A DNA stretch of 64,000 nucleotides from an uncultured Chloroflexia bacterium (GCA_963775225.1 CAVZHW010000006.1:88329-152328); one strand, 5' to 3'. Counted from the stretch's first letter, positions 6,563 through 43,642 are shown. A program made the numbers and translations. Notes: a model not told the origin generated them from the letters alone.

Positions 6563-6639
<77 letters not shown>

Positions 6640-21644: not shown

Positions 21645-21678
21645 CGGCCAAGTATCGGCCGCGACCCGTCGCGCGGGC

Positions 21679-21895
21679 TGATCGCTCACACGGGTCAAAC
21701 GTCCGCCGATCCGCTCGAGTGAAGGCAGCGGCCGTCCCCGATGCCAACCCAGACTGCCGGCCAGACTCGATTTGGCCTTACCAGCCACCGTTTATGCAGC
21801 GCTCGACGCATCTTCTGCCGCATCCGAGTGGATGGATGAATGCCCGGTCAGCGCCCGCCAACCGCTACCGGACGTTTGACCCGCCACACCGATCA
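21679..21895. repeat. 217-bp palindromic (REPIN/MITE-like) element, copy 1
   Basis: TGATCG-N7-GGGTCAAACGTCCG ... CGGACGTTTGACCC-N7-CGATCA: perfect 14-bp and 6-bp inverted repeats. Confidence 0.8.
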
Positions 21896-22618
21896 TTTCA
21901 TTGCCGGTAATCCTCCGGCGGCCTTCGCTTTCGGCCGCAGTGCCAAGTCACTGACGCCGTCGTCGAGCCTGCCGTCGCGGACGAGGACGTGGCGACTGAA
22001 GCGGTCGGCGATCGTCGGGTCGTGGGTCGCCACGACCAGGGCAAAGCCGTGCTCGGCCTGCAAGGTCGCCAGGAGATCGACGACCTGACGCGAGGTCTGC
22101 GAGTCAAGGTTGCCGGTCGGCTCGTCGGCCAGCACGAGCTGTGGGTCTGCGATAAGGGCGCGGCCAATGGCGACCCGCTGTTGCTCGCCGCCGGACAGCT
22201 CGCCCGGCCGATGCCGTAGCCGGTCGCCCAGGCCCAACTGGCCGAGCAGCTCCCGGGCGTGAGCGTCGAGGTCTCGCCGCGAGCGATACGGCACGAGCGG
22301 CAGCATCACGTTCTCCAGCGCGGACAGCGCCGGCACCAGGTGGAAGAGCTGGAAGACGAGCCCGATCCTTTCCCGCCGGACGTCGGCCCGCGCATCGTCC
22401 GATAGGCCACCCACGTCGCTGCCATCGAGCAGGACGCTGCCCTCTGTCGGCCGATCAAGCAGGCCCATCAGCGCCAGCAGCGTCGTCTTGCCCGCCCCGG
22501 ACGGCCCCAGCACCGCGATCTGCTCGCCGTGCGCCACCGCGAGATCAACGTGATCAAGTGCCACGACCGCCGTCGCGCCACTGCCGTACATGCGCGTCGC
22601 ATCAGTCAGTTGCAGCAT
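21893..22618 (-). CDS. ABC transporter ATP-binding protein (LolD/MacB-like)
   Basis: [29 protein letters not shown] and ATHD motifs; its TGA stop lies within the repeat end. Confidence 0.93.
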
Positions 22619-25600
22619 CGAGGACCTCCAGGGCGGACACAAGCTGGGCCAGGGTGTGCTCGAGGGCCGAGTTGTCGAGCTGGTCGGGGGTGTCGGCCGG
22701 GGTGCCAGTGTCAGTATTGAGACTCGTCGGCTCGCCCAGGTAGGCAGCGTCGATGCCGATCGCGAGGGCCGATGGGGCGATGACGCCGTCGAGGTGCACG
22801 TCGTCGGGCGGCGCGCCGGAGGTCAGCGCAGACAGCAGCGCGGCCGACGTGTCGGTCGCCGCCAGGTCGGCGGTTCGCGCTACCCAGTCGCCTGCGCCGT
22901 CGTCGAGGACGAGCGAGCCGAGAAGGGCTTGGCGTGTCGATGCCTCGTCGAGCGCGTCCGTCCAATGTTCACCAAGCACGGCGGCCAGCCGGCCGCCGAG
23001 CGGCCCAAGCTCGATGACCGGCGCCAGCGGCATCTTTTCGGTGGCGCGGCGCACGAGGCTCGACATCGTCCCCGGCTGGCTCAGATCGGCGAACGCGAGG
23101 CGCAACGGCAGATCGTAGGCGTGCGCCTTGGCGGCCAACTCGAGAGCGACCGCTATCGGCGCCGCGCTCTGGGCCGCCCCGGGACCTGTCGAGCCGACCG
23201 GCACGACCAGCAGCGGCGTCGCGTCTGCCGGTGAGCCGACTGTTGCCCACACGATCTCGCCGGCGGTCAGCCCGACGGATGCGGCGTGAGTTACGGCTGT
23301 CCACGCCTCGTCCGCGAGCGGCCTGACCGTCAGCACCGCGGTCGTCCCCTCCGAGCTGCAGCGGGACAGGGTGTCAAAGGGTCGCGTGGGGTCGTCGGCA
23401 TCGGACACCCGCAGCACCAGCAGCCCGACTGCGCAGTCGGGCTGGCTGAGCTCGCTCGCGGTAAAGGGAAGCGGAGCATCGGCCGTGAACTGCGGCGTCA
23501 CCGCGAGGCCGCCGCTGAACATCGCGCCAACGTCTATCGAATTGCCTGACGCGTCGAACCACTGTGGCATGAACGACAGGAACTCCTCGCTTGAGGCTGA
23601 GCCTCCGTGGGAGCGCACGAAGTCCGTGACGTAACGCAGCGTCCAATCGAAGCTCGCGTTGCCCGCCACTCGGTCGGCGTGGCCGGCGATCGCGTCGACA
23701 TGGCCAGCAAGCGCGATCGACTCTGCCGACGGCGGTGCGGGTGACGGAACTGGCACAAACGCATTTGGCGGGATGGCGGCCGGGGCGAGCACTCCGTAGC
23801 CGACGCCGGCACCGGTCACGAACATCGCCAGAACGACAATGACGGCCAGCGCAGCCCGCGACGCGAAGCCGGGTAGCGCGCCGGTCATGCCCTCGGCGGC
23901 GAGACCACGCGCCGGGTCGACGGCCAGCGCGAGGCGTGCCGGCAGGGCGGCGACGACGAGCGCAACGAGGCCACCGAGCACCACGGCCGCTGCGCCGAGA
24001 ACGACCAGCGCTGGCCACGGGAGACCGACCCAAGCGCCGACCGCGACGACAGGGATCACGGCGAGGAGACCGCCGGCGAAGGCCGGCAGGCCGGCCTCGA
24101 CCGACACGACGCTGGCGATAGCGCGGGCGCGCCAGCCGGTGGCGCGCAGCAGGGCGATCAGGCTGACGCGCCGCTCGACGGCCAGCACACCGGAGTCGAG
24201 CGCGATCGACGCCGCGGCGAACAACGCTGCCCCGGCGGCGAGCAGGTGGAACCAGCCCACGCGCAGCCACACCAGGCCGCCCAGCACTGTCGTGCGCAGC
24301 TCGCCGCCGTAGGCGACCTCGACCGCCGCGATGGTGCCCGCGACGAGGATCGCCAGCGCCAGGGCGATGGCAACTGCCAGCAGTCGGCGCGGTGCTTCGA
24401 AGCTGTTGCGCAGGCCCAGGCGGACGACACCCAGGCTCAGCCAGCGTCGCGGCTCGCCCACGACGCGCTCGCGCTGCCCGCGGTTGGTCAGTGCGGCAAG
24501 GCCAGCGGCGGCCATGTGCACACCGACGACTCCCAGCGCCGCGATGGGATACGCCAGCGGCGGTAGGTCGACGTCGGTGATGGCGTCGAATATCGCCAGC
24601 AGGATGACCGACAGGATCGCCGCGGCGAGGCCGAGCAGCAGCGCCTGGCTGACCAGCAGCCAGACCCGGCTCACTCGCCGCCAGCCGAGCTGGCCCAGGA
24701 TCTCGAGCCCGCGCCGCTGGTCATCGACGAGGAAGACCCCGAAGCTGCCCAAATACAGCAGCACGACCAGGCCCGCGCCGCCGAGCAGGAGGCCCGACAG
24801 GCCATCGGCGCCGGTCACGATTCGTGGCGCCTCGCCCAGCGTCGTCCAGCGCTCGCGAACGGTGCCCACGCCCGCGACGGCTACGTCGACGTCGACCGGC
24901 GAGCTACCGGCCACGACATCGACGTGCAGCCCGGTCCGATCGCGGATCGCCTGCGCCACCTGGGCGATGTGGTCGACCGCCGCCGGCGTGTAGGCGTCAA
25001 CGTCGGAGACGCGGACGCGGATGGCGTCGATGAACTGCGCACCGCGCAGCGCCTCGACCGTCTCGAGGTTGGTCAGGCCGATCGGCGGCAGCGGGTTGAG
25101 ACCGCCCGGGTTGAGCGAGACCGGCAGCGCCTGGTTGACCGGGTTGCCGCCGGCATCGGCAACGAGCTGCCGCGCCGGATCACCATAGACCCCCAGCGGG
25201 ACATAGTTGGTCGCGCCCGCGTAGCGCGCGGCAATAGCGTCGAGATCGTACGTGCCGAGCGAGTCGACGAGGAACGGATCGGGGACCGTGACCGCCAGCG
25301 GTCGGTACTGCACTAGCCCGTCGAGCAGGTCGCCAATTGTGCCCGCGTTCCATCCCTGCGGTGCGGCTGCGGCGATCGCCGGCTGAACGAGTTCGCTCCA
25401 CGTTCCGAGGTTGTCGAGGATGGGATGACCATCCGGAGTGCGGCCATAGGCCGTCTCGGAGGGCAACAGCAGGACGTTGCGCCCGTAGGCACCACCGCCG
25501 CCAACGTTCATGTTGGGCTGGATCGCGCCGTCATGGAACTCAACGAGGGTGACACGCAGGGGCTGGATCAGGTCGGAGAACGCCTTCGTGTCGGATGCGA

Positions 25601-26582
25601 CGACCTGGGTCGTCTTGCCATTGGTAAAGCCCTGGACCACCGAATCCTCGGCCGCGAGCCAGTCGGTCAGCGATCCGTTGAACTTCGTCGTCCGGTGCAT
25701 CTCTTCGAGTGCGGCGCCCAGCCCAGCGACATCCACGCCGTCGACGAGCGAGATCGACATCGTCACCTGCCCCGGCAGGGACACGTGTGCCGGCGTGATC
25801 ACAGGCACGCGAGTCGCTGTCTCCTGGGCGTTCTGATCAAACGTCGTCGTCAACCCGCGTTGCAGATTCTGGCCCGTTACGTATTCGCTGAGGCCGATCA
25901 GTCGGTCTTCCTCAACCGGGTCGATGCCGACGATATCGCCCCATGTCGAGGGCAGCTCAATCTTCAGGTCTGCATTGGCCGGCTGCCCCGGCTGCGTGCC
26001 CCACCCGCCCGACCCGACCGCACCAGCGATCACCGCGGCTAGTCTGAACTCACCCTGGTAGTCCCAATTGACGCCGACGTAGCCGTTCGCCCGAATCTGC
26101 GTGCCATCGGGCAGGCTGACCTCCTCCGTGATCTTCACCAGTTGTCCCCGGTCAGGCGTCGGGAATGACGCGTCGATGGCGACGTCATCGGGCCTCATCC
26201 AGCCGAGTGTGGCCAGCGGCGCGGCGACCTCGACGCCTGGGATCTGCTGGATCGCGTGCCATTGCGCGCGCGTGATGCCCGAGGAACGTACTGCGAGAAA
26301 GTCGGATGGGACGACCTGCTTGCCGTCGATCGTGTACGTCGTCGCGTCGGTCGGCTGAACGAGCAGGTCGTAGGCGCCGCGCCATCCGGCGTCGACGGTC
26401 TGGCCGACGATCGTGCGGCTGGTCACCGCGGCGGTCGCAAGCGATGCCGCGGCCAGGGCGATCGAGACCGAGCCGGCGGCAAGAATGATCGCCCGCGGCT
26501 GGTTGCTGACCAGGATCCGCCAGCCAACCCGAAGCGGGCCCCAGAAGCGGGTCCTCATCGGCGGCCGGCGAGGCCGAGTCAT
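22602..26582 (-). CDS. very large FtsX/MacB-type ABC permease with C-terminal M28-peptidase-like domain
   Basis: TM1, large extracytoplasmic domain (GAYDLLV.P, I.QIPGVEVAAP, DAIRVRV, TGLHVDVVAGSS), two FtsX blocks (ILGQLGW, LLRATGW), then a soluble M28-like tail. Confidence 0.8.
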   Translation of the reverse strand: MTRPRRPPMRTRFWGPLRVGWRILVSNQPRAIILAAGSVSIALAAASLATAAVTSRTIVGQTVDAGWRGAYDLLVQPTDATTYTIDGKQVVPSDFLAVRSSGITRAQWHAIQQIPGVEVAAPLATLGWMRPDDVAIDASFPTPDRGQLVKITEEVSLPDGTQIRANGYVGVNWDYQGEFRLAAVIAGAVGSGGWGTQPGQPANADLKIELPSTWGDIVGIDPVEEDRLIGLSEYVTGQNLQRGLTTTFDQNAQETATRVPVITPAHVSLPGQVTMSISLVDGVDVAGLGAALEEMHRTTKFNGSLTDWLAAEDSVVQGFTNGKTTQVVASDTKAFSDLIQPLRVTLVEFHDGAIQPNMNVGGGGAYGRNVLLLPSETAYGRTPDGHPILDNLGTWSELVQPAIAAAAPQGWNAGTIGDLLDGLVQYRPLAVTVPDPFLVDSLGTYDLDAIAARYAGATNYVPLGVYGDPARQLVADAGGNPVNQALPVSLNPGGLNPLPPIGLTNLETVEALRGAQFIDAIRVRVSDVDAYTPAAVDHIAQVAQAIRDRTGLHVDVVAGSSPVDVDVAVAGVGTVRERWTTLGEAPRIVTGADGLSGLLLGGAGLVVLLYLGSFGVFLVDDQRRGLEILGQLGWRRVSRVWLLVSQALLLGLAAAILSVILLAIFDAITDVDLPPLAYPIAALGVVGVHMAAAGLAALTNRGQRERVVGEPRRWLSLGVVRLGLRNSFEAPRRLLAVAIALALAILVAGTIAAVEVAYGGELRTTVLGGLVWLRVGWFHLLAAGAALFAAASIALDSGVLAVERRVSLIALLRATGWRARAIASVVSVEAGLPAFAGGLLAVIPVVAVGAWVGLPWPALVVLGAAAVVLGGLVALVVAALPARLALAVDPARGLAAEGMTGALPGFASRAALAVIVVLAMFVTGAGVGYGVLAPAAIPPNAFVPVPSPAPPSAESIALAGHVDAIAGHADRVAGNASFDWTLRYVTDFVRSHGGSASSEEFLSFMPQWFDASGNSIDVGAMFSGGLAVTPQFTADAPLPFTASELSQPDCAVGLLVLRVSDADDPTRPFDTLSRCSSEGTTAVLTVRPLADEAWTAVTHAASVGLTAGEIVWATVGSPADATPLLVVPVGSTGPGAAQSAAPIAVALELAAKAHAYDLPLRLAFADLSQPGTMSSLVRRATEKMPLAPVIELGPLGGRLAAVLGEHWTDALDEASTRQALLGSLVLDDGAGDWVARTADLAATDTSAALLSALTSGAPPDDVHLDGVIAPSALAIGIDAAYLGEPTSLNTDTGTPADTPDQLDNSALEHTLAQLVSALEVLDAATD

Positions 26583-26586
26583 GGCG

Positions 26587-26826
26587 TCAAGGCAGATAGC
26601 CGGGCAGCGTGGTCAGGATGCGCTCGGTGCCGGAATCTCTCAAGCCGGGAAAGCCGACCGGGATCAACATGAACCCCGACGCCACGGCCCAAATGCCCAG
26701 CGTCACCGCGACGACGAGGAAGACAGTGAGGAAGATCGCCAGCATCTTGCACGTCCGGTCACGTCGTGGCTGGTCTTCGTGGATTGCCATCCCTCGAAGC
26801 ATGACCACGGATTCGCCGGATGGCAT
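26587..26826 (-). CDS. small single-TM hypothetical protein
   Basis: Hydrophobic segment MLAIFLTVFLVVAVTLGIWAVA; GAGG upstream; ends 4 nt before the permease ATG. Start uncertain. Confidence 0.5.
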   Translation of the reverse strand: MPSGESVVMLRGMAIHEDQPRRDRTCKMLAIFLTVFLVVAVTLGIWAVASGFMLIPVGFPGLRDSGTERILTTLPGYLP

Positions 26827-26861
26827 CCGACGAACCTCTGAAAAACATCAGCAATCTCGAG

Positions 26862-27323
26862 CTAGTGAGCAGATATGCCATGCGTTGGAACGATCTCAGG
26901 GGATCCTCCAAACATCCTCGGCGACTGCGGCCCTGTGAATGGGCGCGCAAAGGTCTGCGGCTGCGAGACGAGGACGAGCGCCAGGACTGTCACAGCGAGG
27001 AGGACCGCCAGGCCGAGCAAGACGATGGCGGAGGCCACATACCGATGTGCCTCGGAGGGCGGCGTTGCCAACGGAGCGACGTTGCTGTCCCGCAGCGCTG
27101 CGATCAGCGCCGCCCGGCCGTCAACGCCGAACTTCGCGTAGATGTGGGTCAGATGGCTTCGAACTGTCGACTCGCTCAGGCACAGCCGCGTCGCGATCTC
27201 TCGGTTACGGGCTCCTGTCGTCAGCACCCGCAGGACGTTGCGCTCGGCGCGGGTCAGTTCATCGAGTGGGTCCGGTCGCTCGCCAGTGGCCACAGATGCG
27301 TTATCGAGCGATAGCTCCGCCAT
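26862..27323 (-). CDS. LuxR-type HTH regulator with C-terminal transmembrane helix
   Basis: LTRAERNVL...GARNREIA.RL.LSESTVRSHLTHIYAKFGV, then a hydrophobic helix (VASAIVLLGLAVLLAVTVLALVLV). Confidence 0.8.
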   Translation of the reverse strand: MAELSLDNASVATGERPDPLDELTRAERNVLRVLTTGARNREIATRLCLSESTVRSHLTHIYAKFGVDGRAALIAALRDSNVAPLATPPSEAHRYVASAIVLLGLAVLLAVTVLALVLVSQPQTFARPFTGPQSPRMFGGSPEIVPTHGISAH

Positions 27324-27500
27324 TAGGGAATCATCCGCACTTCACAGACTTGGCCGGAGTGCCGTTTGACCCGGTCGCCACGCCAAAGGATCGAATTCCA
27401 AACCGCTGCACGTCTCGCAGCGGTGTCGTGGCTCTCGACGATTGCTCGGGCAGACCGATGCCATGGATCTACAGGCTGTGCGGGTCGTGACGTCACCAGG

Positions 27501-28133
27501 CTAGGTCGGCGGCGAAGTCGGAAGCATCGACGGGGACAGCGGACCGCCGGGGTAGGCCTGCACGACCCGCCACGCTCCACTGGATTGCTGCTGCAGGACA
27601 AACCCGGAGCCAACCTCGCCGGGCGGCAATCCACGCGTTGTGCCGGTGATCGTGAGGGCGGTGGTGAGAACGACCATGTTGAGGCCGAGTCGATGGGGCT
27701 CGCCAAGGATCTTGAAAGCCACAACACGTGTTATTCCGCCACAGAAAGCGTCACCGCCCCAGTTGTAGACGAGCGAGCCGACGAATTGCCCGGAGGTGTC
27801 GCAGTCGCCGGCGACAAGCGCCGAGAGATAGGCATCCAGCACTACCTCGGGAGGCGCCGAGTCGGGCGGGACCGTCACACGCGGCGACGGGGTCACCGCA
27901 GGCGAGGGCGTCGGGGTCGGCCCGGGCCGCAATCCCACCGAGGCGAAGAAAAGCGCTCCGCCGAGCAGCAGCACCGCGCCGAGCAGGATGGCGGGTCGCA
28001 GCAGTCCGGCCACGCCCGGCTGTACGCGTGTCATCGGCCCGAATACGCGTGCCGGTGGCTCTGGCACCAGTTGCTCGATGCGGGCGAACCGCCGGGCAAA
28101 CCGGGCGAAAGTGGTGTCGTCGAAATCGTTCAT
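27501..28133 (-). CDS. putative membrane anti-sigma/sensor protein
   Basis: Coupled (TGATG) to the ECF sigma gene; short cytoplasmic N-terminus, TM helix, PT linker, small two-Cys extracytoplasmic domain ending GAWRVV. Confidence 0.6.
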   Translation of the reverse strand: MNDFDDTTFARFARRFARIEQLVPEPPARVFGPMTRVQPGVAGLLRPAILLGAVLLLGGALFFASVGLRPGPTPTPSPAVTPSPRVTVPPDSAPPEVVLDAYLSALVAGDCDTSGQFVGSLVYNWGGDAFCGGITRVVAFKILGEPHRLGLNMVVLTTALTITGTTRGLPPGEVGSGFVLQQQSSGAWRVVQAYPGGPLSPSMLPTSPPT

Positions 28134-28693
28134 CAGAGCAGCTCCGCATGCGAACGCAGCACTGCCAGGGCGCGGGCGACCAGCGATCGCACGCCCGACT
28201 CCGAAAGACCCATGACGGAACCGATGTCGGCGTCGGTCAGATCGCGCTGATAGCGCAGGATCAGGACCTCGCGTTGCCGCGCCGTCAGGACGCGGGCGAG
28301 CGCTTCAAACCAGGTGCCGAACTCGGTGTCATGGCCGGATAAAGACGCTGAGTGTCCGTTGCCGATCCGCGGAATGAGGCGGGCCAGGTGGCGAGCACGG
28401 CGCCAGCGATCGGTGGCGATGCGCCGGGCGGTCAGCAGCAGCCAGGCGACCGGGCGCTCAGGGACCTGCCGCCATGTCCGAAGCGCGCGCTCGAAGGTGT
28501 CGGCGGTGATCTCCTCCGCATCCTCCAGCGAGCGCGTAAGTGCGAGGACATAGCGCAACACGTCCCGGTAGTGGTCCGCGTAGAGGCGCTCGATGGCAGC
28601 CGACTCGGCACGCGCAAGCGGTTGAAGCGGCACAACGACCCCGTCGTTCTGCACCAGCGCGTCGTCCTGCCGGCGCGTCCTCGCGATCGTCAC
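28133..28693 (-). CDS. ECF-type RNA polymerase sigma-70 factor
   Basis: DAEEITADTF, WLLLTARRIATDRWR (region 2); LTARQREVLILRY, I...MG.SESGVRS...RA (region 4); GGAGGT RBS. Confidence 0.92.
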   Translation of the reverse strand: MTIARTRRQDDALVQNDGVVVPLQPLARAESAAIERLYADHYRDVLRYVLALTRSLEDAEEITADTFERALRTWRQVPERPVAWLLLTARRIATDRWRRARHLARLIPRIGNGHSASLSGHDTEFGTWFEALARVLTARQREVLILRYQRDLTDADIGSVMGLSESGVRSLVARALAVLRSHAELL

Positions 28694-28771
28694 ACCTCAC
28701 CAACGAACGAGATGCCCGAATTGTCCCGTCAGGGCTCGCCGCCGGCCTGGCGACATCGCAGTCAGATCGGC

Positions 28772-28987
28772 CGATCGGTCACACAGGTCAATCGTCCGCC
28801 GGGCCGCCAGTCGATCCCGCGATGGCCTCGATTGCTGCCCGAGGCTGGAGCGTCAAGGCGCGGATTGCGTCACCCGGCGCCGCATATGCACCGGTCGATG
28901 CATGCTTCGACGTGTCCGACTGCATCAGTGAATGCCAATTCAGCGGCAGACGGCCGACACCGGACACTTGATCGGTCACACCGATCA
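28772..28987. repeat. 216-bp palindromic element, copy 2
   Basis: Left end 26/29 identical to copy 1; 28885-28987 versus 21793-21895 is 73/103 identical without gaps (hand count). Confidence 0.8.
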
Positions 28988-29016
28988 CGCCGGCGCGGCA
29001 GGCTCGGGAGGCGGGT

Positions 29017-31068
29017 CTAGGCGCTGCGGGCGACTTTCCGTTCGTCGGTGTCGGCGGCAGGCTTGAGACCCAGCTCGGCGACAGCCTCCTCAACCTGCTG
29101 CGTGATGCCGTCGACGTCGAGTCCAAGGGTGTGGCGCAGGTCGGCGACCGCGCCATGATCGACGAACCGGTCGCCCGGCAAGCCAATGATCCGCACCGGG
29201 ACCTCGCGCAACGCCTGGTCCGAAAGCCCGGCGTCGGCCAGCACCTCCAGCACCGCCGAGCCGAACCCGCCGACGGCGACGCTCTCCTCGAGGGTCACCA
29301 CGAGCTTCTTGCCGTGCACCTTGTCGAGAATCAATTCGCGGTCGAGTGGCTTGGCAAAGCGCGCGTTGATCACCCCGACCGACCAGCCCTGCGCGGCCAG
29401 GCGGTCGGCCGCCTCCAGCCCGCGCATCACGATCGGCCCGAAGCCGACGATCAGGATGTCGGTGCCATCGCGCAGCAGTTCGCCCTTGCCGACCGGAATG
29501 GGGGCGGGCTCGACGTCGGCCAGGTCGTAGCCCGGATCGCGTGGGTAGTGCAGCGCGAACGGATGTGCCTGACCGAAAGCGGTGTGCAGCAGGCGCCGCA
29601 GCTCCTGCTCATCCTTGGGTGACGCGATCACGAGGTTGGGCAGCTGCCGCTGAGCGGCCAGGGCGAACATGCCCTGGTGGCTGGTGCCGTCCTCGCCCAC
29701 CAGCCCGGCGCGATCAACGCCGATGACCACCGGCTGGTCGTTCTGGCACACGTCGTGGACGAGCTGGTCGAACGCCCGCTGCAGGAACGTCGAGTAGATC
29801 GCCACGAACGGGCGCATGCCGGCGATGGCCAGGCCGGTGGCCATGGTGACGGCGTGCTGCTCGGCGATGCCCACGTCGAACATCCGGTCGGGGAACTCGG
29901 CCCCGAACCTGGCCAGGCCGGTGCCGGTGGGCATGCCCGCGGTGACGGCAACGATACGCGGATCGGTCTGGGCAAGGCTGATGAGCTCACGCGCCATGAC
30001 GCTGGTGTAGCTGGGTGGCTTCGACCGGGCTGCCACCGCCTGGGCCATCGACGGCGTCGCGTCGCCGTCGCCGCCCTGCACCGCGCTCGCTGATGGAGCG
30101 CCGCTGACACCACCGTGCACGACCGTCATGGGCGGCAGCGCCGCGCCGTGGAAGCTCACCTTGTCGGCCACGGCCGGCTGGTAGCCACGGCCCTTCTGGG
30201 TGCGCACGTGGACGAGTACCGGCCCGTCCATGTCACGCAGCGCCCTGCTGAGCACGTAGTTCAGCCGGCGCAGGCTGTGGCCGGGCACCGGCCCGGCGTA
30301 GACGATGCCCAGGTCCTCGAACAACTGGCCGGGCTGGGCAAAGTTGACCACCGACTTGCGGAAGCGCCGCGACCACTCGAGCAAGGCCGGCCCGACCATC
30401 GGGATCTGCTCGACCGTCTCGTCGTACACCCGCTTGGAGCCACGCCACGTGCGCGACAACTTGATCCGGCTCAGGTACTGGCTGAGCGCCCCAACGGTCG
30501 GTGAGATGCTCATCTCGTTGTCGTTGAGCACGATCAAGAGGCGCGTCTTGCGCTGGCCGATGTCGTTGAGCGCCTCGAGCGCCATGCCCGACATCAGCGC
30601 AGCGTCGCCGACCACGACCGCGATGCGCTCGTTCGAGCCGCGCTGGTCGCGCGCCAGTGCCAGCCCCTCGGCGATCGACAGGCCGGTACCGGCATGACCG
30701 CCGTCGAACACGTCGTGCTCGCTCTCGCTGCGGCGCGGGAAGCCGCCCAGGCCGTCGAGCTGGCGGAGGGTGTCGAATCGGTCGAGCCGGCCCGTCAGCA
30801 GCTTGTGCGCGTACGCCTGGTGGCCGGTATCCCACACGATCTTGTCGGTCGGGCTGTCGAGCAGGCGATGCAAGGCGACGGTCAGCTCGACCACGCCCAG
30901 CGAACTGCCCAGGTGGCCACCGGTCTTGGCCACCGTCTGGATGATCGTTCCGCGAATCTCCGCGCACAGCTCGCGCAGTTGAGCATCGGACAGTTGCTTC
31001 AGGTCGCGCGGATCGGTGATGCTTTCCAGCAGGGCCACTTGATCTCCAGGGGGGGTCGGCGTCGCCAT
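29017..31068 (-). CDS. dxs: 1-deoxy-D-xylulose-5-phosphate synthase
   Basis: [21 protein letters not shown]...G...EALN, NDNEMSI, GIAEQHA and [12 protein letters not shown] motifs. Confidence 0.96.
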
Positions 31069-31135
31069 CGGGACGAACGCAGCGCCGTCGATGTTGTGCG
31101 GCGGTCCACGCCGTTTCGTGATTCTACGATGCGCG

Positions 31136-32766: not shown

Positions 32767-32785
32767 GCCGCTACCCTACGCACGC

Positions 32786-32963: not shown

Positions 32964-32990
32964 ACCGCGCGACCGGCGTCGACGCGCGAC

Positions 32991-33548: not shown

Positions 33549-33557
33549 GGCGCAATC

Positions 33558-34763: not shown

Positions 34764-34775
34764 GTTCGGTTTTCC

Positions 34776-36508: not shown

Positions 36509-38169
36509 GAGCCGGGCTGCGGCGGCACGACCGTCAGCCGGATACGCGCCGCCTGGTCGGGTAGGTGATCGATGAAATCGGGCCACATCTGGATCTCCGC
36601 GTCGCCGTACTGCGCCAGTGCCTGGCGTGCTTCGGACACGGACTTGCCGCTGATCGCCGCGAGCACCTGCTGCTCGTCCGGCTGCGCGTATATGTCGGCC
36701 GACGCGGTCACCTGGAAGACCACCGTCTGGCCATTCACACTACCCGGCGCATGGCTGGTGGCGACCGCGTTGCCGACTATCTGCTGGTCGTCGGCCAGCG
36801 ACGAACGGAAGCGACTTTCGCCCAAGCCGTCGACGAGCGATTCGTTGACGGCGATGACGCTGACGCTGCTGTGCAGGGTCAGCGTGAAGGAGTCGGCAGC
36901 CGTACCGACCAGCGCATCGGAGACCGGGTCTAGCTGCGTGTCGCCCAGCGCGGAGGTCGACGAGTAGACCGTCAGGCCGCGCGGCACGTTTGCGGGATCG
37001 GCCAGCGCGCTCGCAGCGGCCGTGGGCAGCTCGCCGTTGAGGGTGGCGAGCGCCGCGTCGTAGTCGGCCTGCAGGACCACCGTCTGCTCGTTGCGCGCGC
37101 CCCCCTCGGTCGCAGCGGGGTTGGTGACCGTGACACCCTGGTTGGCGAGATCCTTGGGCACACGGGTGATCGCTTCCGCAGGCACGTTGCCGCGCGGCCC
37201 GTCGACCTTCGCCCGCACGCGCACACTCGCGATGACCGGCATGCCGGACGAGAGCTTCACCTTGTCCAACGTGACGGGGTCCATTGTCTCGAACGCGATG
37301 CCGTCAGTGGCGGTGCTAACGATCGTGCCCGCCGGAATTGGCACCTGGGTGAGCGTGTTGATGCTGCTGAACCTGACCGTGCCGTGCGCGGTCGTCAGGG
37401 TCACATCGGTGCCGCTCGCCGGAAAATTGCCGCTCACAGAAATGGGCAGCTCGATCCGTTGGGCACCCACGACGCCGGCGGCCGGATCGGCAACGGCCAC
37501 GCTGGGATCGGCGCTGATCGTGTAGACCGGACTGGTCAGGTGCGTGACCGTGGGACGGAGCGTGATAGTTGCCGTGGGCAGGAAGACGTAGGCGCCGTAA
37601 GCGACGCCGGCCACGAGCAGGATGACGAGCAGCAGCACGAGCAGCGGCAGGCCCATTGTCCGGCGCTGCCGCCGGCGGCGGCGAACGGCTCCCGGGGCTC
37701 GCGGGACGCCCGTCTGCTGCGGGCCCGTATCCACCTGTGTCCGCTCATCCTGCGTCCGCTCATCCGGCGCTTCCCCGAGACCCAGCGTCGGCTGACGCAG
37801 CACGGCGGTATCAGTCCCGCGCTGCCGGCCCGCTGCCGGTTTCGCGCGGGCGCCCGGTGCCACCCGCTGCGCCAGCTGGCGGTCCTGCTCGCGGAATGCC
37901 TCGAGTGCCGCCTCCGCCGCGGCCACCGAGTCGTACGCCGGCAGTCCGGCCGAGATGGCGAGCGCGCGGACGCCCGGCTCGTCGCTGACGGCGGCCATGT
38001 TCAGCCGGCGCTCCGCCGCTTCGCGCGCGAGAAGGCGGAAGTTGATGCGGCTGGTGGCGATGCGCGAACCGGTTGGAATGACCAGCAGCGCCTCGCCATC
38101 GGTCACCGCGCGAATGCGCTTGATCGCGACGGTGATTTCGTCGTCGACCTCGAGGTAGCAGATGCTCAT
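36505..38169 (-). CDS. bitopic membrane protein with baseplate J/gp47-like extracytoplasmic domain
   Basis: Cytoplasmic N-domain (YLEVDDEIT...NFRLL), TM helix, LPTATITL.P, A.GTV.F...IPAGT...F.T...V.A...GP.GNV...I...VTNP....GG. Confidence 0.75.
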   Translation of the reverse strand: MSICYLEVDDEITVAIKRIRAVTDGEALLVIPTGSRIATSRINFRLLAREAAERRLNMAAVSDEPGVRALAISAGLPAYDSVAAAEAALEAFREQDRQLAQRVAPGARAKPAAGRQRGTDTAVLRQPTLGLGEAPDERTQDERTQVDTGPQQTGVPRAPGAVRRRRRQRRTMGLPLLVLLLVILLVAGVAYGAYVFLPTATITLRPTVTHLTSPVYTISADPSVAVADPAAGVVGAQRIELPISVSGNFPASGTDVTLTTAHGTVRFSSINTLTQVPIPAGTIVSTATDGIAFETMDPVTLDKVKLSSGMPVIASVRVRAKVDGPRGNVPAEAITRVPKDLANQGVTVTNPAATEGGARNEQTVVLQADYDAALATLNGELPTAAASALADPANVPRGLTVYSSTSALGDTQLDPVSDALVGTAADSFTLTLHSSVSVIAVNESLVDGLGESRFRSSLADDQQIVGNAVATSHAPGSVNGQTVVFQVTASADIYAQPDEQQVLAAISGKSVSEARQALAQYGDAEIQMWPDFIDHLPDQAARIRLTVVPPQPGS

Positions 38170-38188
38170 CAAGCGCACACGGGCCTGT

Positions 38189-39451
38189 TCATGCCTTCAT
38201 CTGCCGCAGCACCTGGCGCAGCGCGGCATCGAGCGGCTGCTCCGGTGCGCTCATCTCGAGCGCTTGATGCGCCAGCGCCAGAGGCGGAACATCCTGCTCG
38301 TCGACCAGCAGGCCGGTAGCGTCGCTCAGCTGAACGACTTCGCCAACGGAGATCGACTCGACCTGTGGCGGGCGCGCGAAGGCGACCTGGCGCGCGAAGT
38401 CCGCGTCACGCAGCGCAGCGGCGATCTGAGGCAGTCGTGCTCCGCCACCGCACAGGTACAGGCGCCCGGGCAACATGCCCGACTTCGAGAACTCCTCGAG
38501 CACCAGCTCCACCCCCGCCGCCCAGACGGCAACGTCCTCGCCAATGATCTGCTCAACCTCGTCGCGCTGCTCGACCGCCACCCCCTTGGCGAAGTCCACC
38601 TTGACTTCCTCAGCGCGCGCGAAGGGCAGGTCGAGCCGATCAGCCAGTGATTTGGTGAAGGCACGGCCGCCCAGCGCGAACATGCGCGTGCCCTCGATGC
38701 CACCCGGCCGCACCAGGGCCACGTCGGTCGTTCCGCCGCCGACGTCGATGAACAGACCGCCCGATTGGCGGACCTGCTCGTCGTCCATGCAGCGCGCCAC
38801 CGCATACGGCTCGGCGACGATCGCGACCAGGTCCAGATCGAGCATGCTCGCGACCGTCTGCAACGCGCCCAGGTGAATCAACGGCGCATAGGCGTTGAAG
38901 ATGCTGATGCGAACGTGGCGACCCTTGAAGCCGACCGGGTTGGTGACCGCGTAGCCATCAATCGTGGCACCGGTCACCGCGGCGTGGACCAGGCGGATGT
39001 CGACGTTGGGGAGGCCGGTCTCCCACGTGATCGTCCGCTCCGCCTCGCGCAGGGCGTCGTGTTCGACCGAGTCGATGAGCGTCTGCAGCTCGCGCCCATT
39101 GATCGGCTGGTCTGGCTTCTTGCGTTCCTGGCTGACGCTCGAGGTGAAACCCTTGACCAGCTCGCCGGCGATGCCGATGACCACCTGGCTCGAGCGGAAG
39201 CCGGCCATCTCCTCCGCTTCCTGGAGCGCCACCTGGCAGTTGTCGACGACCGCCGATATGTCCGCCACGGTGCCCGACTGCATATGGGCGAGACCCTGCC
39301 GCTTGCGACCAACGCCACGCACGATGCCCTTGCCCGCTTCGTCGATCTCGAACACCAGCGCCTTGGCGAACTCGGTGCCGACATCGAGCGCGGTGCACGC
39401 CGCGAGCTTGTCGCCCTCGGGCCTTGGCAGGAAACGGCGCCAGAAGGCCAT
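38189..39451 (-). CDS. FtsA-like actin-fold ATPase (outside the dcw cluster)
   Basis: ALDVGT, AEPYA, DVGGGTTD, GG..FT..LA, AE.VK, LCGGGA.LP; SHS2-like insert with VTNPVG. Confidence 0.85.
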   Translation of the reverse strand: MAFWRRFLPRPEGDKLAACTALDVGTEFAKALVFEIDEAGKGIVRGVGRKRQGLAHMQSGTVADISAVVDNCQVALQEAEEMAGFRSSQVVIGIAGELVKGFTSSVSQERKKPDQPINGRELQTLIDSVEHDALREAERTITWETGLPNVDIRLVHAAVTGATIDGYAVTNPVGFKGRHVRISIFNAYAPLIHLGALQTVASMLDLDLVAIVAEPYAVARCMDDEQVRQSGGLFIDVGGGTTDVALVRPGGIEGTRMFALGGRAFTKSLADRLDLPFARAEEVKVDFAKGVAVEQRDEVEQIIGEDVAVWAAGVELVLEEFSKSGMLPGRLYLCGGGARLPQIAAALRDADFARQVAFARPPQVESISVGEVVQLSDATGLLVDEQDVPPLALAHQALEMSAPEQPLDAALRQVLRQMKA

Positions 39452-39454
39452 CGC

Positions 39455-42298
39455 TCAGGTCTCGGTGAGGGCGGCCTCGAGCCCGTCGCGGATCGCGTCG
39501 AGCGCCTGCGCCAGAGCCTCACGCCGTTGCCCGCGCGCCTGGGCCATCTCCGGCCGGCCCCCGCCGCGGCCGTCGATCAGCGGCGCACCGATGCTGACCA
39601 GCGCCCCTGCCGACACGCCGCGCGCAACGAGGTCGTCGCTGACCGTTACGAACAGCTGCGGCTCGTCGGCGTCAAGACCCAGCGCAATGACGCCGTCGCC
39701 GAGCTCCGCGCGCACGGCGCGGGCGAAGCCCTGCAGCTCCTTCATCGAATCGAACTCAGCTGAGTAGCCCACGTAGTGCGCGCCGTCGACCGACTGCGCG
39801 CCCTGCGCGAGCAGCCCCGGGTTGCCCGCGGTACGGCCGGCGCGCAGCCGCCGCTCCAACTCGCGATTGCGTTCCTGAAGCTCATGGATGCGCTCGGGCA
39901 GCGCGTCGACGTCACGCGCGCCGATCTCGTCGGCGAGCTGGTCGAGCAGTGCCAACCGGGACTGCGTGTGGGCGTCGGCCGCCTCGCCGGTGACGGCCTC
40001 GATGCGGCGCATGCCGCTGCCGATCGAGTGCTCCCCGGTGATGTAGAAGCCGCCGACCTGGCCGGTGGCGGCGCAGTGCGTGCCGCCGCACAGCTCGCGG
40101 CTATAGCCGTCGACGAACAGGACGCGCACCTGCTCGCCGTATTTCTCGTCGAAGAACGCGTCGGCGCCCTCGGCGATCGCCTCGGCCATGGTCATGTAAC
40201 GCGGCGTAACGGTCCTGTTGTCGCGGATCACGCCGCGCACCTCGGCCTCGATGGCGCGTTTCTCATCGGCGGTCAGGGCGCGATCCAGCGGAAAGTCGAA
40301 GCGCAGGTAGTCGGGCGCCACCAGCGAACCCGCCTGCCGGGCAGACTCGCCGACGTTGTTGCGCAGCGCGCGATGCAGCAGGTGAGTGGCAGTGTGATTG
40401 CGCATCGTGCCTGCGCGGCGTGAGGCATCGACCTCGGCTGCCAGCTCGTCGCCGACCGTGACGCGGCGCAGCAGCTGGCCGCGGTGCACGATCACGCCCG
40501 CCACCGGCCGCTGCGTGTCCTCGACCTCGAACACGATCTCGCCGGTTGGGTCGCGCAGTACCCCGTGGTCACCCACCTGGCCGCCGCCTTCGGCATAAAA
40601 CGGCGTCTGGTCGAGCACGATCTCGGCCTCCGCCCCGGCTGGAACTCGCAGCTCCGCCTCCGCGACCGGCGCCAGCTCCTCGTAGGCAATGCCGTCGCGC
40701 AGGATGGCGACAACCCGGCCCTTCGCCGTCGTCGTCTCGTAACCCAGGAAGCGCGCCCCAGCTGGCTTGGTTGAGACCGTGGCGTCCAATGCTCCGCCGG
40801 TCCCGGCCGCCGTCCCGGCGCCCACCCGCGTCGCGACCTGGTCGTAGAGCGCGAGCATCTCGGCGTGGCGAGCCAGTTCGGCCTTGCGGCCACCGCGACT
40901 CCGCTCGCGCTGCTCGGCGAGAGCCTCGTCGAAGCCGGCGCGGTCAACGCGCACGCCGTACTCGGTCGCCAGCTCGGAGGTCAAGTCGATGGGGAAGCCG
41001 TAGGTGTCGTGCAGGCGGAAGGCGACGTCGCCGGGCAGGACCGGAGCATCGGGCCGGAGGTCTTCCACCCGGCGGCCGACCGTCCGCTCGGCCGAAGTGA
41101 TGGCGATGAGCGCCTCCTCGAAGTGGACCACCCCGGCATCCAGCGTGCGCTCGAACTGGCGCTCCTCGGCGGCGATGACGCCGGCGATCTGAGTGCGCCG
41201 TTCGTCGAGGTACGGGTAGGCACCGACCATCGTCTCGACCACCACGTCCGAAAGGGTGGCCAGGAACGGGTCGTGCCAGCCGAGCAGCCGGCCGTGCCGC
41301 ACCGCGCGGCGCAGGATACGGCGCATGACGTAGCCGCGCCCCTCGTTGGCGGGCCGGATGCCGTCGGCCGCAAGGAAGGTCAGTGCGCGGGCGTGGTCGG
41401 CGATGACCTGGTAGCTGAAGCGCTCCTGCTCGAACGTTTCCGGGTCGTGGCCGAGCAGGCCGCGCATGTACTCGTGAATGGGCGTGAACAGGTCGGTGTC
41501 GTAGTTGGTCGGCACTCCCTGCAGCACACTCGCCAGACGCTCGAAGCCCATGCCCGTGTCCACGCTCTTGAAGGGCAACGGCAGGCGTCGCCCGTCGGCC
41601 TGCTGGTCAAACTCCATGAACACCAGGTTCCAGATCTCCAGCCAGCGCGGACAGTTCTCGGAGTGATCGGGCACGCAATGCGGCCCCTCGGAAAGGTGGG
41701 CACCGCGGTCGAAGTGGATCTCGCTGCACGGTCCGCACGGCCCCGTGTCGGCCATGCGCCAGAAGTTGTGATCGTCGCCCCTGTCCACGTCGCCCCACAC
41801 GGCCATCCGCTCGGGCGGCATGCCCACCTCGTGCCAGTAGCTGCGCGCATCCTCGTCGTCCTTGTAGGTCGTCGCACCGAGACGTTCGAAGGGGATGCCG
41901 TAGGTGGTCGTCAGCAACTCGACTGCCCAACCGATCGCCTCGCGCTTGAAGTAGTCGCCGAAGCTCCAGTTGCCGAGCATCTCGAAGAAGGTGTGGTGGC
42001 GCGTGGTCCGGCCGACCTCCTCGAAATCATTGTGCTTGCCCGCCACGCGCAGGCAGCGTTGGTAGTCGACCGCACGCTTGTAGCCGCGCTGCTCGCGTCC
42101 GGTCAGCACATCCTTGAACTGGACCATGCCCGAGTTGGCGAAGAGCAGCGTCGGATCGTCGGCCGGCACGAGGCTGGCGCTGGGCACCACCTCGTGACCG
42201 CGCTCGGCAAAGAAGTCGATGAAGCGCCGGCGGATGTCGGCGGCCGGCATCGGTTTGATCGGCGCGCCGCGGCCCTCTCCGATGGTTTCCTCGGGCAT
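39455..42298 (-). CDS. alaS: alanine--tRNA ligase
   Basis: DPTLLF.NSGM, HHTFFEMLGN, GPCGPCSE, DTGMG.ER, HTATH, ELCGGTH and GGG..EMAQ motifs. Confidence 0.97.
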   Translation of the reverse strand: MPEETIGEGRGAPIKPMPAADIRRRFIDFFAERGHEVVPSASLVPADDPTLLFANSGMVQFKDVLTGREQRGYKRAVDYQRCLRVAGKHNDFEEVGRTTRHHTFFEMLGNWSFGDYFKREAIGWAVELLTTTYGIPFERLGATTYKDDEDARSYWHEVGMPPERMAVWGDVDRGDDHNFWRMADTGPCGPCSEIHFDRGAHLSEGPHCVPDHSENCPRWLEIWNLVFMEFDQQADGRRLPLPFKSVDTGMGFERLASVLQGVPTNYDTDLFTPIHEYMRGLLGHDPETFEQERFSYQVIADHARALTFLAADGIRPANEGRGYVMRRILRRAVRHGRLLGWHDPFLATLSDVVVETMVGAYPYLDERRTQIAGVIAAEERQFERTLDAGVVHFEEALIAITSAERTVGRRVEDLRPDAPVLPGDVAFRLHDTYGFPIDLTSELATEYGVRVDRAGFDEALAEQRERSRGGRKAELARHAEMLALYDQVATRVGAGTAAGTGGALDATVSTKPAGARFLGYETTTAKGRVVAILRDGIAYEELAPVAEAELRVPAGAEAEIVLDQTPFYAEGGGQVGDHGVLRDPTGEIVFEVEDTQRPVAGVIVHRGQLLRRVTVGDELAAEVDASRRAGTMRNHTATHLLHRALRNNVGESARQAGSLVAPDYLRFDFPLDRALTADEKRAIEAEVRGVIRDNRTVTPRYMTMAEAIAEGADAFFDEKYGEQVRVLFVDGYSRELCGGTHCAATGQVGGFYITGEHSIGSGMRRIEAVTGEAADAHTQSRLALLDQLADEIGARDVDALPERIHELQERNRELERRLRAGRTAGNPGLLAQGAQSVDGAHYVGYSAEFDSMKELQGFARAVRAELGDGVIALGLDADEPQLFVTVSDDLVARGVSAGALVSIGAPLIDGRGGGRPEMAQARGQRREALAQALDAIRDGLEAALTET

Positions 42299-42344
42299 GG
42301 GCTAACTCTAGCGAAAGGTCGCCCTGGCCACCCCTGCACCACCG

Positions 42345-42542
42345 TCGTGCATCCGACCCATCAACCGTCGGCCAAAGACGCCAATCACGGCTCTCCGTTC
42401 GATCTTGGTCGTGATCCCCCGGCTCAACCGACTTTCGATACCTGTACAGACCACCCATCAAGTGCCCTTCGAGGCCGCGCTCGACCCTCGCCCATCGGGC
42501 GCCGGCAGTGCACAACGGACACTTGATCGATCACGCCCATCG
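42345..42542. repeat. degenerate copy 4 of the 217-bp element, with a nested left end
   Basis: Left TCGTGC-N7-CCATCAACCGTCGG; internal CCATCAAGTGCCC (42455); right CGGACACTTGATCG-N7-CCATCG. Confidence 0.6.
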
Positions 42543-42582
42543 ACACCGGCCGGGCGCGCCCATCAACCCTGGCCGGGCGCGC

Positions 42583-43251
42583 CTAGACCAGGACAACACC
42601 CGAACCTGGGATAGGGCGACCGGCCCTAAGCGCGGCAAGGATCTGCCTCGGCGATGTCGAGTATCGCTGGCCCAGCGCGTCGCGGAACTGGTCGGCCAGC
42701 TGCCGGTTGTGCGCACTGTCCGACAGGACGATGACTATCTCGTCCGCGCCGCCGTCCCTTTCCCGCTCGCGGACGCGCCGAACCAGCGCCTGCACATCCC
42801 GGATCCGAGTCTCGACCTCGACTCCTATCCGCAGGTGCTCAAGGCGCAGCAGCATGTCCCATGCTCGCTGATCGCCCGGCGTCGGCAGTAAGACCTCGCG
42901 AAAGACCCTATAGGGCGGTGCGGCAACGTTCCGCAGGAATCGACCTGCCGTCCTTTGCTGGCCGGCATCACGAATGGCGTCTCCGAACTCGCTCAGCCCG
43001 GCGCTCATCTCGAGGCCAAGAACGGACGCAATTTGTGCAAGGCGCGATATCGAAACAGTCGGAAGATCGTAGCTCTCCAGCCGACTGACCTCCGACTGCG
43101 TCCAGCCGATTTCCTTGGCAAGCGCCCGCTGGCTCACGCCTCGCGTCTGTCGCCTTGTGCGCAGCTCGTGAATCAGCCTCCGCACGAGGGCATCACCTTT
43201 GCGCCGCCCGCGCTCCTTCCGAGTCTCCCGCGTTCCCACGCCAGACAGCAT
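42583..43251 (-). CDS. XRE-family HTH fused to a PD-(D/E)xK-like nuclease domain
   Basis: RRQTRGVSQRALAKEIGWTQSEVSRLE (XRE HTH); REV...GDQRAWDMLL...IGVEVETRIRD restriction-endonuclease-like core. Confidence 0.72.
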   Translation of the reverse strand: MLSGVGTRETRKERGRRKGDALVRRLIHELRTRRQTRGVSQRALAKEIGWTQSEVSRLESYDLPTVSISRLAQIASVLGLEMSAGLSEFGDAIRDAGQQRTAGRFLRNVAAPPYRVFREVLLPTPGDQRAWDMLLRLEHLRIGVEVETRIRDVQALVRRVRERERDGGADEIVIVLSDSAHNRQLADQFRDALGQRYSTSPRQILAALRAGRPIPGSGVVLV

Positions 43252-43338
43252 GAGCACGGACGCTTCACACGCGCTTATCTGCCACTTGGCCAGCCATACC
43301 CGGACGAACCAGGGCGCGACTCGAACTCATCCCTGGGG

Positions 43339-43555
43339 TGATGGGCCAGGCCGATCAAGCGTCGGTCGAGCGCCGCCAAGCTCCCCTCTCCGGCTGGCAC
43401 CAACTTCGACTTGAGCCGCCCAGCCCGCAGCTGGCCCCTCCTGGCTCAGACAGAACCCACCGAAAGGACCGGAAGAGGCTCGGGCCGGGCCGGATCGGGG
43501 CAGCGGCACCCCAGCTCACCCGCTATGACGGACGCTTGATCGTCCTCAACCATCA
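43339..43555. repeat. 217-bp palindromic element, copy 3
   Basis: TGATGG-N7-CGATCAAGCGTC ... GACGCTTGATCG-N7-CCATCA; same length and spacing as copy 1, with compensatory substitutions. Confidence 0.78.
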
Positions 43556-43642
43556 GCACGAGCTCAACCTTCAGCACGAGCTCGCCTGCGGAAGGATTCG
43601 ACCTGCGGATCGGGAAGCGTGGGCCGCCGTAACATGAGGGAC

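Follow-up and report, generated by a model that had tools for sequence, protein, structure and literature searches.

Tagged palindromic repeats in one genus of Candidatus Limnocylindrales and their linkage to a gene for a helix-turn-helix protein with a predicted nuclease-like fold

Short palindromic repeats such as the REPs (repetitive extragenic palindromic sequences) and the RPEs (Rickettsia palindromic elements) are widespread. To our knowledge, an enzyme that mobilises repeats of this kind is known only for the GTAG/RAYT class (RAYT, REP-associated tyrosine transposase). The tagged REPs described in the cited sections of PMC3733652 carry a tag beside a stem-loop, form dimers with variable spacers as well as trimers, have species-specific stems and include intragenic copies. 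According to the same sections, the CGTC-tagged REPs, to which RPE-4 and RPE-6 belong, "apparently lack a dedicated transposase". The locus treated here lies in a 64,000-nucleotide stretch of DNA from an uncultured Chloroflexia bacterium, called the window in its full length (G000:C6:88329-152328), which contains four copies (c1 to c4) of a dispersed palindromic element and, between c4 and c3, a gene for a protein with an XRE-type helix-turn-helix (HTH) domain. The elements consist of two tagged palindromic modules; a further copy is translated in frame within carB, and modules abut the HTH gene or its relatives in several genomes. With somewhat more confidence than doubt, they are interpreted as selfish repeats resembling REPs and RPEs, the modules of which would be the binding sites of the adjacent HTH protein, acting as a dimer.

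An alignment of 15 ends shows each end of an element to be a module made of a CGGACG box, one variable base, TT and an imperfect palindrome of ~19 bp with arms of 7 to 9 bp and a centre of 3 to 7 nt. The palindrome of the window's genome, G000, has the form TGATCGG-(3-5 nt)-CCGATCA, and across 52 modules an average of 6.2 out of 8 positions are complementary between the two arms. Two modules with their CGGACG boxes facing inward enclose a variable, poorly conserved spacer, sometimes accompanied by a third module, which stands 64 to 110 nt from its neighbour in several elements of G013, G009 and G042. Judged by this layout, the architecture appears to be that of a tail-to-tail dimer of tagged REPs. 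Of 26 canonical elements, 18 have the asymmetric centre of the palindrome in direct orientation at both ends and 6 have it inverted, with 2 ties; the element thus differs from a simple inverted repeat. A preliminary description of this DNA had correctly recognised the succession of a 6-bp end, seven free positions (N7), an arm, the opposite arm, N7 and the opposite end; the N7 spacer, however, is not inverted between the two ends. A fixed length of ~217 bp had also been proposed, and this applies only to c1 to c3 (216 to 217 bp), as c4 measures 198 bp and the fifth copy, c5, 196 bp. The 23 small two-ended elements of the genus range from 124 to 238 bp, with larger units of 404 and 750 bp. The spacers are homologous only inside subfamilies: identity amounts to 64% between c1 and c2, 59% between c1 and its orthologue in G006 and 76% between c5 and its orthologue in G021, compared to 39 to 51% for all other pairs and a shuffle mean of 34%.

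The modules share with the tagged REPs of PMC3733652, as far as its cited sections go, an unpaired tag at one end of an imperfect palindrome, a stem of 8 to 9 bp starting with A/T pairs, a short loop, the pairing with tags inside ("TT dimer"), variable spacers, trimers or clusters, species-specific stems and intragenic copies. CGGACG, one base and TT fit an unpaired tag beside a short stem-loop, for which a stem of 6 to 13 bp has been published there. The tag itself differs; the complement of CGGACG contains CGTC, a possible correspondence only, as the orientation of tag to stem may differ from that of PMC3733652, and the family is therefore not filed as a member of the CGTC class, among the host phyla of which the cited sections do not list Chloroflexota. 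The spacers of 70 to 190 nt exceed the usual 20 to 100 nt of that source, and the genomes hold about 2 to 8 elements each instead of tens to hundreds. A candidate partner gene flanking the units is a further point of difference from the tagged REPs. In the dRS3 repeats of Neisseria the tag has the orientation opposite to that found here.

The four copies in the window are present where the preliminary description had placed them (Table 1); all are intergenic, and each lies upstream of a minus-strand gene. Copy c1 is situated between a TlyA/FtsJ-like gene, the start of which is read as GTG at 21644, and an ATP-binding cassette (ABC) ATPase gene, whose stop codon on the minus strand is formed by the final three bases of c1, TCA. 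Copy c2 lies between the start of a gene for an extracytoplasmic function (ECF) sigma factor (28693) and the stop of dxs (29017), c4 between the start of alaS (42298) and the stop of the HTH gene (42583), and c3 between the start of the HTH gene (43257) and a divergent cyclase/AAA_16 gene (43619). In a repeat search the right ends of all four copies form one 30-nt repeat family, and the earlier hand count of 73 identical positions out of 103 between the right half of c1 and that of c2 proves exact; 5000 random pairs of 103-mers from the window average 29.6 and never exceed 49. Complementarity of one end to the other over 30 nt reaches 22/30 in c1, 20/30 in c2, 24/30 in c3 and 14/30 in the degenerate c4.

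An nhmmer profile of the four copies recovers these at E <= 6e-35, a circular result for a profile built from them, and detects c5, which was outside the training set, at G000:C2:268579-268785 with an E value of 0.0089; the ends of c5 have the same layout in other letters. A strict motif search of the genome proved too stringent, returning the window copies only and missing c5. A weight matrix of the end module yields 13 matches with a score of at least 18 in the 1.44-Mb genome, 10 of which had trained the matrix, and none in each of five Markov-1 simulations. An independent control for non-randomness is provided by R1, a sequence-only covariance model of the ends, which, run with stricter filters on 140 genomes that represent 35 other genera of the class, gives no match at E <= 1e-4. 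The four copies are far beyond chance. Two solo variant modules occur at G000:C2:226043 and G000:C2:260821 (scores of 18.7 and 22.7) in a shared unit of ~100 nt; the former stands ~200 nt beyond a distant HTH-like open reading frame (ORF), C2:224895-225845.

Homologous proteins labelled by NCBI place G000, a 1.44-Mb assembly of 14 contigs with 68% G+C and 68% completeness, in Candidatus Limnocylindrales, Chloroflexota; nearly all genomes compared with it are draft metagenome bins. R1 finds canonical modules in 15 of 32 genomes of the genus at E <= 0.01, seven of these at E <= 1e-4, mostly as minus/plus pairs 120 to 220 nt apart. Variant modules that escape R1 occur in two further genomes of the genus. 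The variant of G002 comprises nine exact copies of its own 12-mer of tag plus arm, mostly paired, which occupy carB, two more sites and the immediate upstream region of an HTH paralogue, and the variant of G008 has 7-bp arms and a 7-nt centre. The idea of a dispersed, non-coding family with palindromic ends is supported; the profile and covariance-model searches proposed earlier produced further copies in the genome as well as in its relatives. Several species share element sites, namely, the alaS/HTH locus (G000, G001, G006, G007, G009 and G013), carB, the tlyA site (G000 and G006) and three more sites common among G013, G009 and G042. As many sites are shared between species, the family is regarded as old and mostly vertically inherited. 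According to ORF calls based on the G+C content of third codon positions (GC3), by which gene orientations around elements in relatives were assigned throughout, elements fill intergenic gaps to within 10 to 70 nt, several stand directly downstream of genes, either orientation to the flanking genes occurs, and some lie between convergent 3' ends (G021:C28, G013:C5 and the orthologous site G042:C91). One element of G001 (L117 1922-2097) is located directly upstream of an apparent tRNA gene.

Searches of general collections add no relative of the elements. Rfam at the gathering threshold, the search suggested by the preliminary description, matches only one tRNA in the window and none of the elements, and at E <= 1 it adds three weak matches, every one outside the elements; plasmid and phage collections contain no match to them. 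[quoted passage not shown] The unpublished genome G004 is counted in the 32-genome tallies, in the 41-genome draw of relatives, in the carB table (with the short form) and as locus L061, and the unpublished G139 in the 141-genome class tally of the HTH family; no conclusion depends on either alone.

Left and right arms were compared at 16 positions in 33 elements from 12 genomes. A left arm agrees with its own right arm at 13.58 of 16 positions, with the right arms of the genome's other elements at 13.34 (within-genome permutation, P = 0.07) and with those of other genomes at 10.83 (P < 1e-4), P values that overstate the case, related genomes not being independent. All modules of one genome share a variant, the shared carB site included. 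The statement that both arms change together is true for c1 and c3, while over the 33 elements the change is found at the level of the genome and not of the element. A hairpin in each element is not singled out by this covariation, since it is genome-wide. Such genome-wide variants fit three readings: a genome-specific recognition factor, conversion among copies and re-insertion.

Copy c5 lies inside carB, an ORF of 1185 amino acids with CPSase and ATP-grasp domains (Pfam) on both sides of the insert, in a linker ahead of the oligomerisation domain. Measured between two fixed anchors, this linker spans 27 to 84 nt in 15 of 27 genomes of the genus and 195 to 450 nt in the other 12, and in 25 of the 27 its length is divisible by three and no stop interrupts it. 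G002 and G003 (L122 and L131, few-contig assemblies) depart from this, with linkers of 266 and 200 nt, a broken frame and 1 and 3 stops, respectively; assembly indel errors or true pseudogenes could be the cause. The long linker is flanked by canonical modules in G000, G021, G013 and G009 and, as judged by eye, by variant inverted ends in G001, G007, G008, G002 and G043; that of G042 retains only one palindrome. At either end, the palindrome codes for LIG-x-x-D. A four-way alignment shows the module-bearing insert of ~258 nt to be present in G000 and G021 and absent from G006 and G015. Comparison of filled and empty sites reveals both palindromes inside the insert and no target-site duplication. 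The direct centres had prompted the view that insertion splits a palindromic target and duplicates 7 bp, a view that was dropped on this one clean comparison, where both palindromes belong to the inserted DNA; a GGCGCS hexamer at both borders of the insert is so common throughout this DNA that it carries no weight. Of the four aligned genomes, only G006 (L120, G006:C3) and G021 (L119, G021:C72) carry another, unrelated insert in the carB linker, in frame, ~150 nt long and with repeated ends of its own, and the two inserts show all four combinations of presence and absence across G000, G021, G006 and G015.

Since c5 lies in frame in carB and other elements lie between convergent 3' ends, the elements are not bound to promoters. 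The in-frame copy makes the RPEs an equally close analogue as the REPINs. In the cited part of PMC10969869 they are repeats of ~100 to 150 bp that stand in frame in unrelated housekeeping genes and are translated, with no transposase known there, and the carB insert, present or absent among relatives and read through in frame, resembles them. The sequences are unrelated, and only one in-frame site is seen here instead of dozens, most copies being intergenic, in a free-living, high-GC host of the Chloroflexota.

The preliminary description, which proposed a REPIN-like family, overlooked a gene inside its own span that encodes an XRE-HTH protein with a nuclease-like fold (Table 1). In 7 of 30 loci (G000, G006, G013, G001, G007, G009 and G002), canonical modules are found no more than 300 nt from the best HTH match. 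Variant modules abut the HTH gene in G008, and in G022 a module stands 24 nt from an HTH fragment, so that modules flank or abut HTH orthologues or paralogues in nine genomes overall. With roughly five elements and four paralogues in 2.5 Mb, this adjacency is not expected by chance. Beside alaS in G001 and G007, the order palindrome-tag, promoter region, HTH gene and tag-palindrome occupies 750 bp in total, a unit with the topology of the small elements and the gene as spacer; elsewhere the alaS/HTH locus has one, two or three modules on either side. HTH paralogues in other genera of the class stand beside palindromes or tandem units of ~70 nt. At L155 (G117:C1) and L160 (G063:C11) two or three such tandem units with a palindrome and a CGGAC/GTCCG box flank the paralogue. 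The putative recognition helix differs among four classes of module variants, an anecdotal observation from few sequences that is confounded by phylogeny.

Like the REPIN/RAYT systems of the cited portions of PMC3337134, PMC3116915 and the RAREFAN preprint, the family combines a non-autonomous element of two inverted REP units with a vertically inherited gene at a fixed locus, flanked by the same units, and the system persists in the lineage. The earlier proposal holds for the architecture of inverted REP dimers and for the lack of an Rfam family; it does not hold for the enzyme or for the very low copy number. The absence of a RAYT gene, noted before for the window, extends to the genus, with a Y1/RAYT gene (PF01797) in 0 of 32 genomes, 8 of them at least 90% complete, under a control that was positive in 6 of 14 well-known genomes. 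Strictly speaking, the family therefore does not qualify as a REPIN system. Its flanked gene codes instead for an XRE-HTH protein with a fold resembling PD-(D/E)XK nucleases, and there is no large population of near-identical copies, with 5 elements in G000, no more than about 7 in any relative and spacer identities of 40 to 64%. MITEs derived from insertion sequences are likewise short and non-coding with inverted ends, and the 750-bp unit of G001 and G007 parallels their longer, gene-bearing relatives with the same ends. In contrast to these, no target-site duplication and no DDE or other known transposase are seen here, the ends are local palindromes with direct centres, and the gene-bearing unit occupies one syntenic locus.

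In the HTH protein Pfam recognises only HTH_31 and HTH_3 (E values of 3e-10 and 1e-9, above the curated cut-offs), which are also found in 29 of 30 aligned homologues. AlphaFold2 models the whole protein with a pLDDT of 88.7 and the C-terminal domain alone with 90.1; the order of secondary structures in this domain is alpha-beta-beta-beta-alpha-beta. The model points to a restriction endonuclease-like (PD-(D/E)XK) core fold, and fold searches with VIA-align and Foldseek list almost only PD-(D/E)XK nucleases: AF1548 as the best match (Z 8.3, rmsd 3.1, 102 aligned residues), NucS (Z 7.4, rmsd 3.0, 94 aligned), BstEII, XisH-like proteins, SdaI (Z 7.0), Can2, Card1, Bax1, Hjc, Vsr and FokI (Z 5.3). 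Among 30 homologues, the residues D134, R151, D154 and Q156 never vary, and E149 and T150 hardly do. Among 1.84 billion proteins, an exhaustive search with the domain yielded 685 representatives (E <= 1e-3), almost all of which share the architecture at a length of ~217 amino acids and none of which could be named; PADLOC and PHROGs offer HTH matches only, and the ESM Atlas only unnamed Chloroflexota clusters. The protein is predicted to be a homodimer (ipSAE of 0.66 compared to 0.00 for the best control, with at least 66% of contacts shared between runs and a partner pLDDT of at least 81); among proteins with solved structures, 20 of 30 homodimers and 1 of 23 monomers pass the mark applied. 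This pass may stem from a likeness to solved XRE dimers. The HTH resembles those of HipB, SinR and the controller proteins of restriction-modification systems and, as in XRE repressors of this type with several operators (434/P22, HipB, controller proteins), the suggested target is dyad symmetric. The combination of an HTH recognition module with a restriction endonuclease-like fold recalls the modular PD-(D/E)XK enzymes SdaI and FokI; in contrast to these, the likeness of the predicted structure is at the level of the fold only and the catalytic motif is atypical. No methyltransferase partner was seen, and none was searched for.

The HTH family is represented in all 32 genomes of the genus with one to eight matches each, some of them broken, and in 77 of 141 genomes and 26 of 36 genera of the class. 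A conserved GATAAG-type motif, often doubled, precedes the start of nearly every paralogue examined by ~40 to 60 nt (43275-43300 on the minus strand of the window, and loci L040-L061) and might serve as a promoter or in autoregulation. The divergent cyclase gene beside c3 gives PycC (Pycsar cyclase) matches in PADLOC, the best with an E value of 3e-19, and the order alaS-HTH-cyclase is kept in several genomes.

The surroundings of c1 and c2 differ between relatives. The stop of dxs lies no more than 52 nt from the start of tlyA in 17 of 23 loci of relatives and 317 to 439 nt away in 4, and in G000 the interval measures 7.3 kb and contains c2, the ECF sigma factor gene with a downstream ORF, a LuxR-like ORF, an FtsX-like permease gene, the ABC ATPase gene and c1. 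G006 shares the sigma block and the element at the c1 site, identical in 127 of 219 alignment columns, and is without c2 and without the 5.6 kb at 21896-27495. These additional 5.6 kb of G000 begin exactly at the right end of c1 and hold the ABC ATPase, the permease (1326 amino acids) and a LuxR/GerE-like ORF (26862-27323); near their far border stands the weak module-like site of Table 1. A reading of c2...c1 as a cassette was considered and is weakened by the synteny with G006. Three DNA runs from one soil study, all in the form of contigs, contributed short pieces of low depth when compared with 20800-29800. Their joints, one of which links tlyA to dxs with a side of 22 letters, have sides below 31 letters and derive most likely from other organisms. 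A second tyrosine recombinase gene is found at C6:154510-155025, just beyond the window. The assembly has only these two, both presumably Xer-type housekeeping genes, and neither adjoins an element.

Table 1. Features of the window, with positions counted from its first nucleotide
Feature	Coordinates	Strand	Remarks
tRNA gene	6566-6639	-	Sole Rfam match in the window at the gathering threshold
Tyrosine recombinase gene (Phage_integrase, 157.8 bits)	17465-18547	-	recN/ppnK/tlyA neighbourhood
Copy c1, 217 bp	21679-21895		Module scores 35.2 and 36.5
Weak module-like site, uncertain	27434-27462	+	Weight-matrix score 13.4 only (L035 165-193)
Copy c2, 216 bp	28772-28987		Module scores 35.8 and 39.5
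Copy c4, 198 bp, left module degenerate	42345-42542		Module scores 22.3 and 33.6
XRE-HTH/nuclease-fold gene, 224 aa	42583-43257	-	Between c4 and c3; N-terminal XRE HTH and C-terminal domain
Copy c3, 217 bp	43339-43555		Module scores 37.1 and 35.1
Zinc ribbon, class III nucleotidyl cyclase and AAA_16 ATPase gene	43619-45472	+	Divergent neighbour of the HTH gene

In the proposed mechanism, the elements would be selfish or near-neutral palindromic repeats of the kind of REPs, bacterial interspersed mosaic elements (BIMEs) and RPEs, specific to one genus of Limnocylindrales, which reached a few intergenic sites and one permissive linker in carB, where the copy was kept in frame, and which are now transmitted mostly vertically. 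The XRE-HTH protein whose gene separates c4 from c3 would, as a dimer, recognise the module. We infer such binding from the linkage of modules to the gene, the predicted dimer and the genome-specific arm variants, including that of G002, and the helix differences, which are counted as parallel variation in favour of module recognition. A further, speculative step would have the nuclease-fold domain nick or cut the DNA at or near the conserved CGGACG tag, and this cutting might drive copying, conversion among copies or local multiplication of modules, in-frame elements included. The protein would then play a role analogous to that of RAYTs for REPINs with an enzyme of another class. This enzymatic part of the scheme is tentative and held to be clearly less probable than the binding of modules.

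Several observations weigh against this interpretation. Covariation of the arms at the level of single elements is not significant (P = 0.07), and 23 of the 30 best-match HTH loci are without canonical modules. The fold matches are middling, with a single one reaching a Z score of 8 and none in Foldseek at E <= 0.001, and no sequence profile ties the C-terminal domain to a nuclease family in NCBIfam, in the PDB (by single sequence and by profile) or in Pfam with 30 homologues. The conserved motif reads E-T-R and not (D/E)-X-K. The HTH family, found in every genome of the genus and in more than half of those of the class, with paralogue groups that keep conserved neighbours, behaves like an ordinary family of paralogous regulators. 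Copy number is very low, five in a 1.44-Mb assembly of 68% completeness, and no target-site duplication is visible at c1 to c5, as had been noted before for the window copies. With most sites shared between species, recent transposition is not demonstrated; c2, which is absent from G006 and has 64% identity to c1 compared to 59% between c1 and the G006 orthologue, may be a weak hint of it.

The main alternative regards the modules as plain operators through which the XRE protein, as a transcription factor, autoregulates its gene and governs a few others (a small regulon of alaS, tlyA, the ECF sigma factor and the divergent cyclase gene), with sites ~190 bp apart that allow looping and a nuclease-like domain that merely serves dimerisation or ligand binding. 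Binding to dyad-symmetric sites close to the gene of the protein itself is typical of XRE proteins, and modules do lie upstream of the HTH gene in many genomes, while paralogues inside and outside the genus have their own palindromes and a CGGAC box upstream. That all four window copies precede minus-strand genes, that element sites are conserved between species as regulon sites would be, that the dimer model passes its controls, that arm variants track genome and recognition helix, and the ordinary look of the gene family all agree with operators. An operator translated within carB, as part of an insert that G000 and G021 possess and G006 and G015 lack, is difficult to reconcile with such a regulon, as are elements between convergent gene ends (by the GC3-based calls) and the lack of a function common to the flanked genes. 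The spacers of c1, c2 and the G006 element are homologous (56 to 64% compared to the shuffle mean of 34%), which implies that whole elements were copied instead of sites evolving independently, and the conserved acidic residues of the C-terminal domain suggest a retained active site. Operators are accordingly regarded as a possible explanation, on a par with the tentative enzymatic scheme and less probable than selfish repeats bound by the protein.

Action of the elements as RNA, in the form of REP-type hairpins serving as 3'-end stabilisers, processing sites or attenuators, with spread by some other route and the HTH gene as just a frequent neighbour, is improbable. Each palindrome can form a hairpin of 8 to 9 bp and the two ends can pair; on the minus strand, c1 and c3 fold more stably than shuffled sequences do (z scores of -3.47 and -4.07), several elements stand directly downstream of genes, and many REPs are argued to be transcribed in the cited sections of PMC3733652. 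The fold of c2, however, is no more stable than that of shuffles (z score of -1.06, with 25 of 200 shuffles folding as well), and the stability of the others arises from the inverted ends alone. Unconserved spacers, the lack of a matching Rfam family, both orientations to flanking genes and one copy within a coding sequence do not fit RNA elements, and their linkage to the HTH gene would be left unexplained. Of still lower probability, and hardly to be expected, is a role of the modules as site-specific recombination sites of the attC or dif kind bounding cassettes, namely, the sigma/ABC block between c2 and c1 and the HTH gene between c4 and c3. Copies in the same orientation do flank these 6.9 kb and the HTH gene, respectively; the short dxs-tlyA distance of most relatives compared to the 7.3 kb of G000, the start of the additional 5.6 kb precisely at the edge of c1 and two tyrosine recombinases on the contig, one in the window, point in the same direction. 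Yet G006 already carries the sigma block with one element and without c2, most elements elsewhere are single and bracket nothing, and the only two recombinases of the assembly, one of them near recN, are taken to be housekeeping Xer proteins. The palindrome centre measures 3 to 7 nt, compared to a central region of 6 to 8 bp in Xer/dif sites and RYYYAAC/GTTRRRY cores in attC sites.

If the HTH protein indeed cuts at the tag and thereby copies, converts or multiplies the elements, it would be the first candidate for a dedicated enzyme of tagged REP- or RPE-type repeats without a tyrosine transposase. The locus offers a small, tractable system, with a protein of 224 amino acids, a module of ~30 bp and natural variant pairs in sister genomes. 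Should the modules instead be operators, an operator and a regulon would be defined for an uncharacterised, class-wide family of regulators (77 of 141 genomes). The in-frame insertion in carB of a free-living member of the Chloroflexota indicates that selfish DNA inside essential genes may not be peculiar to Rickettsia.

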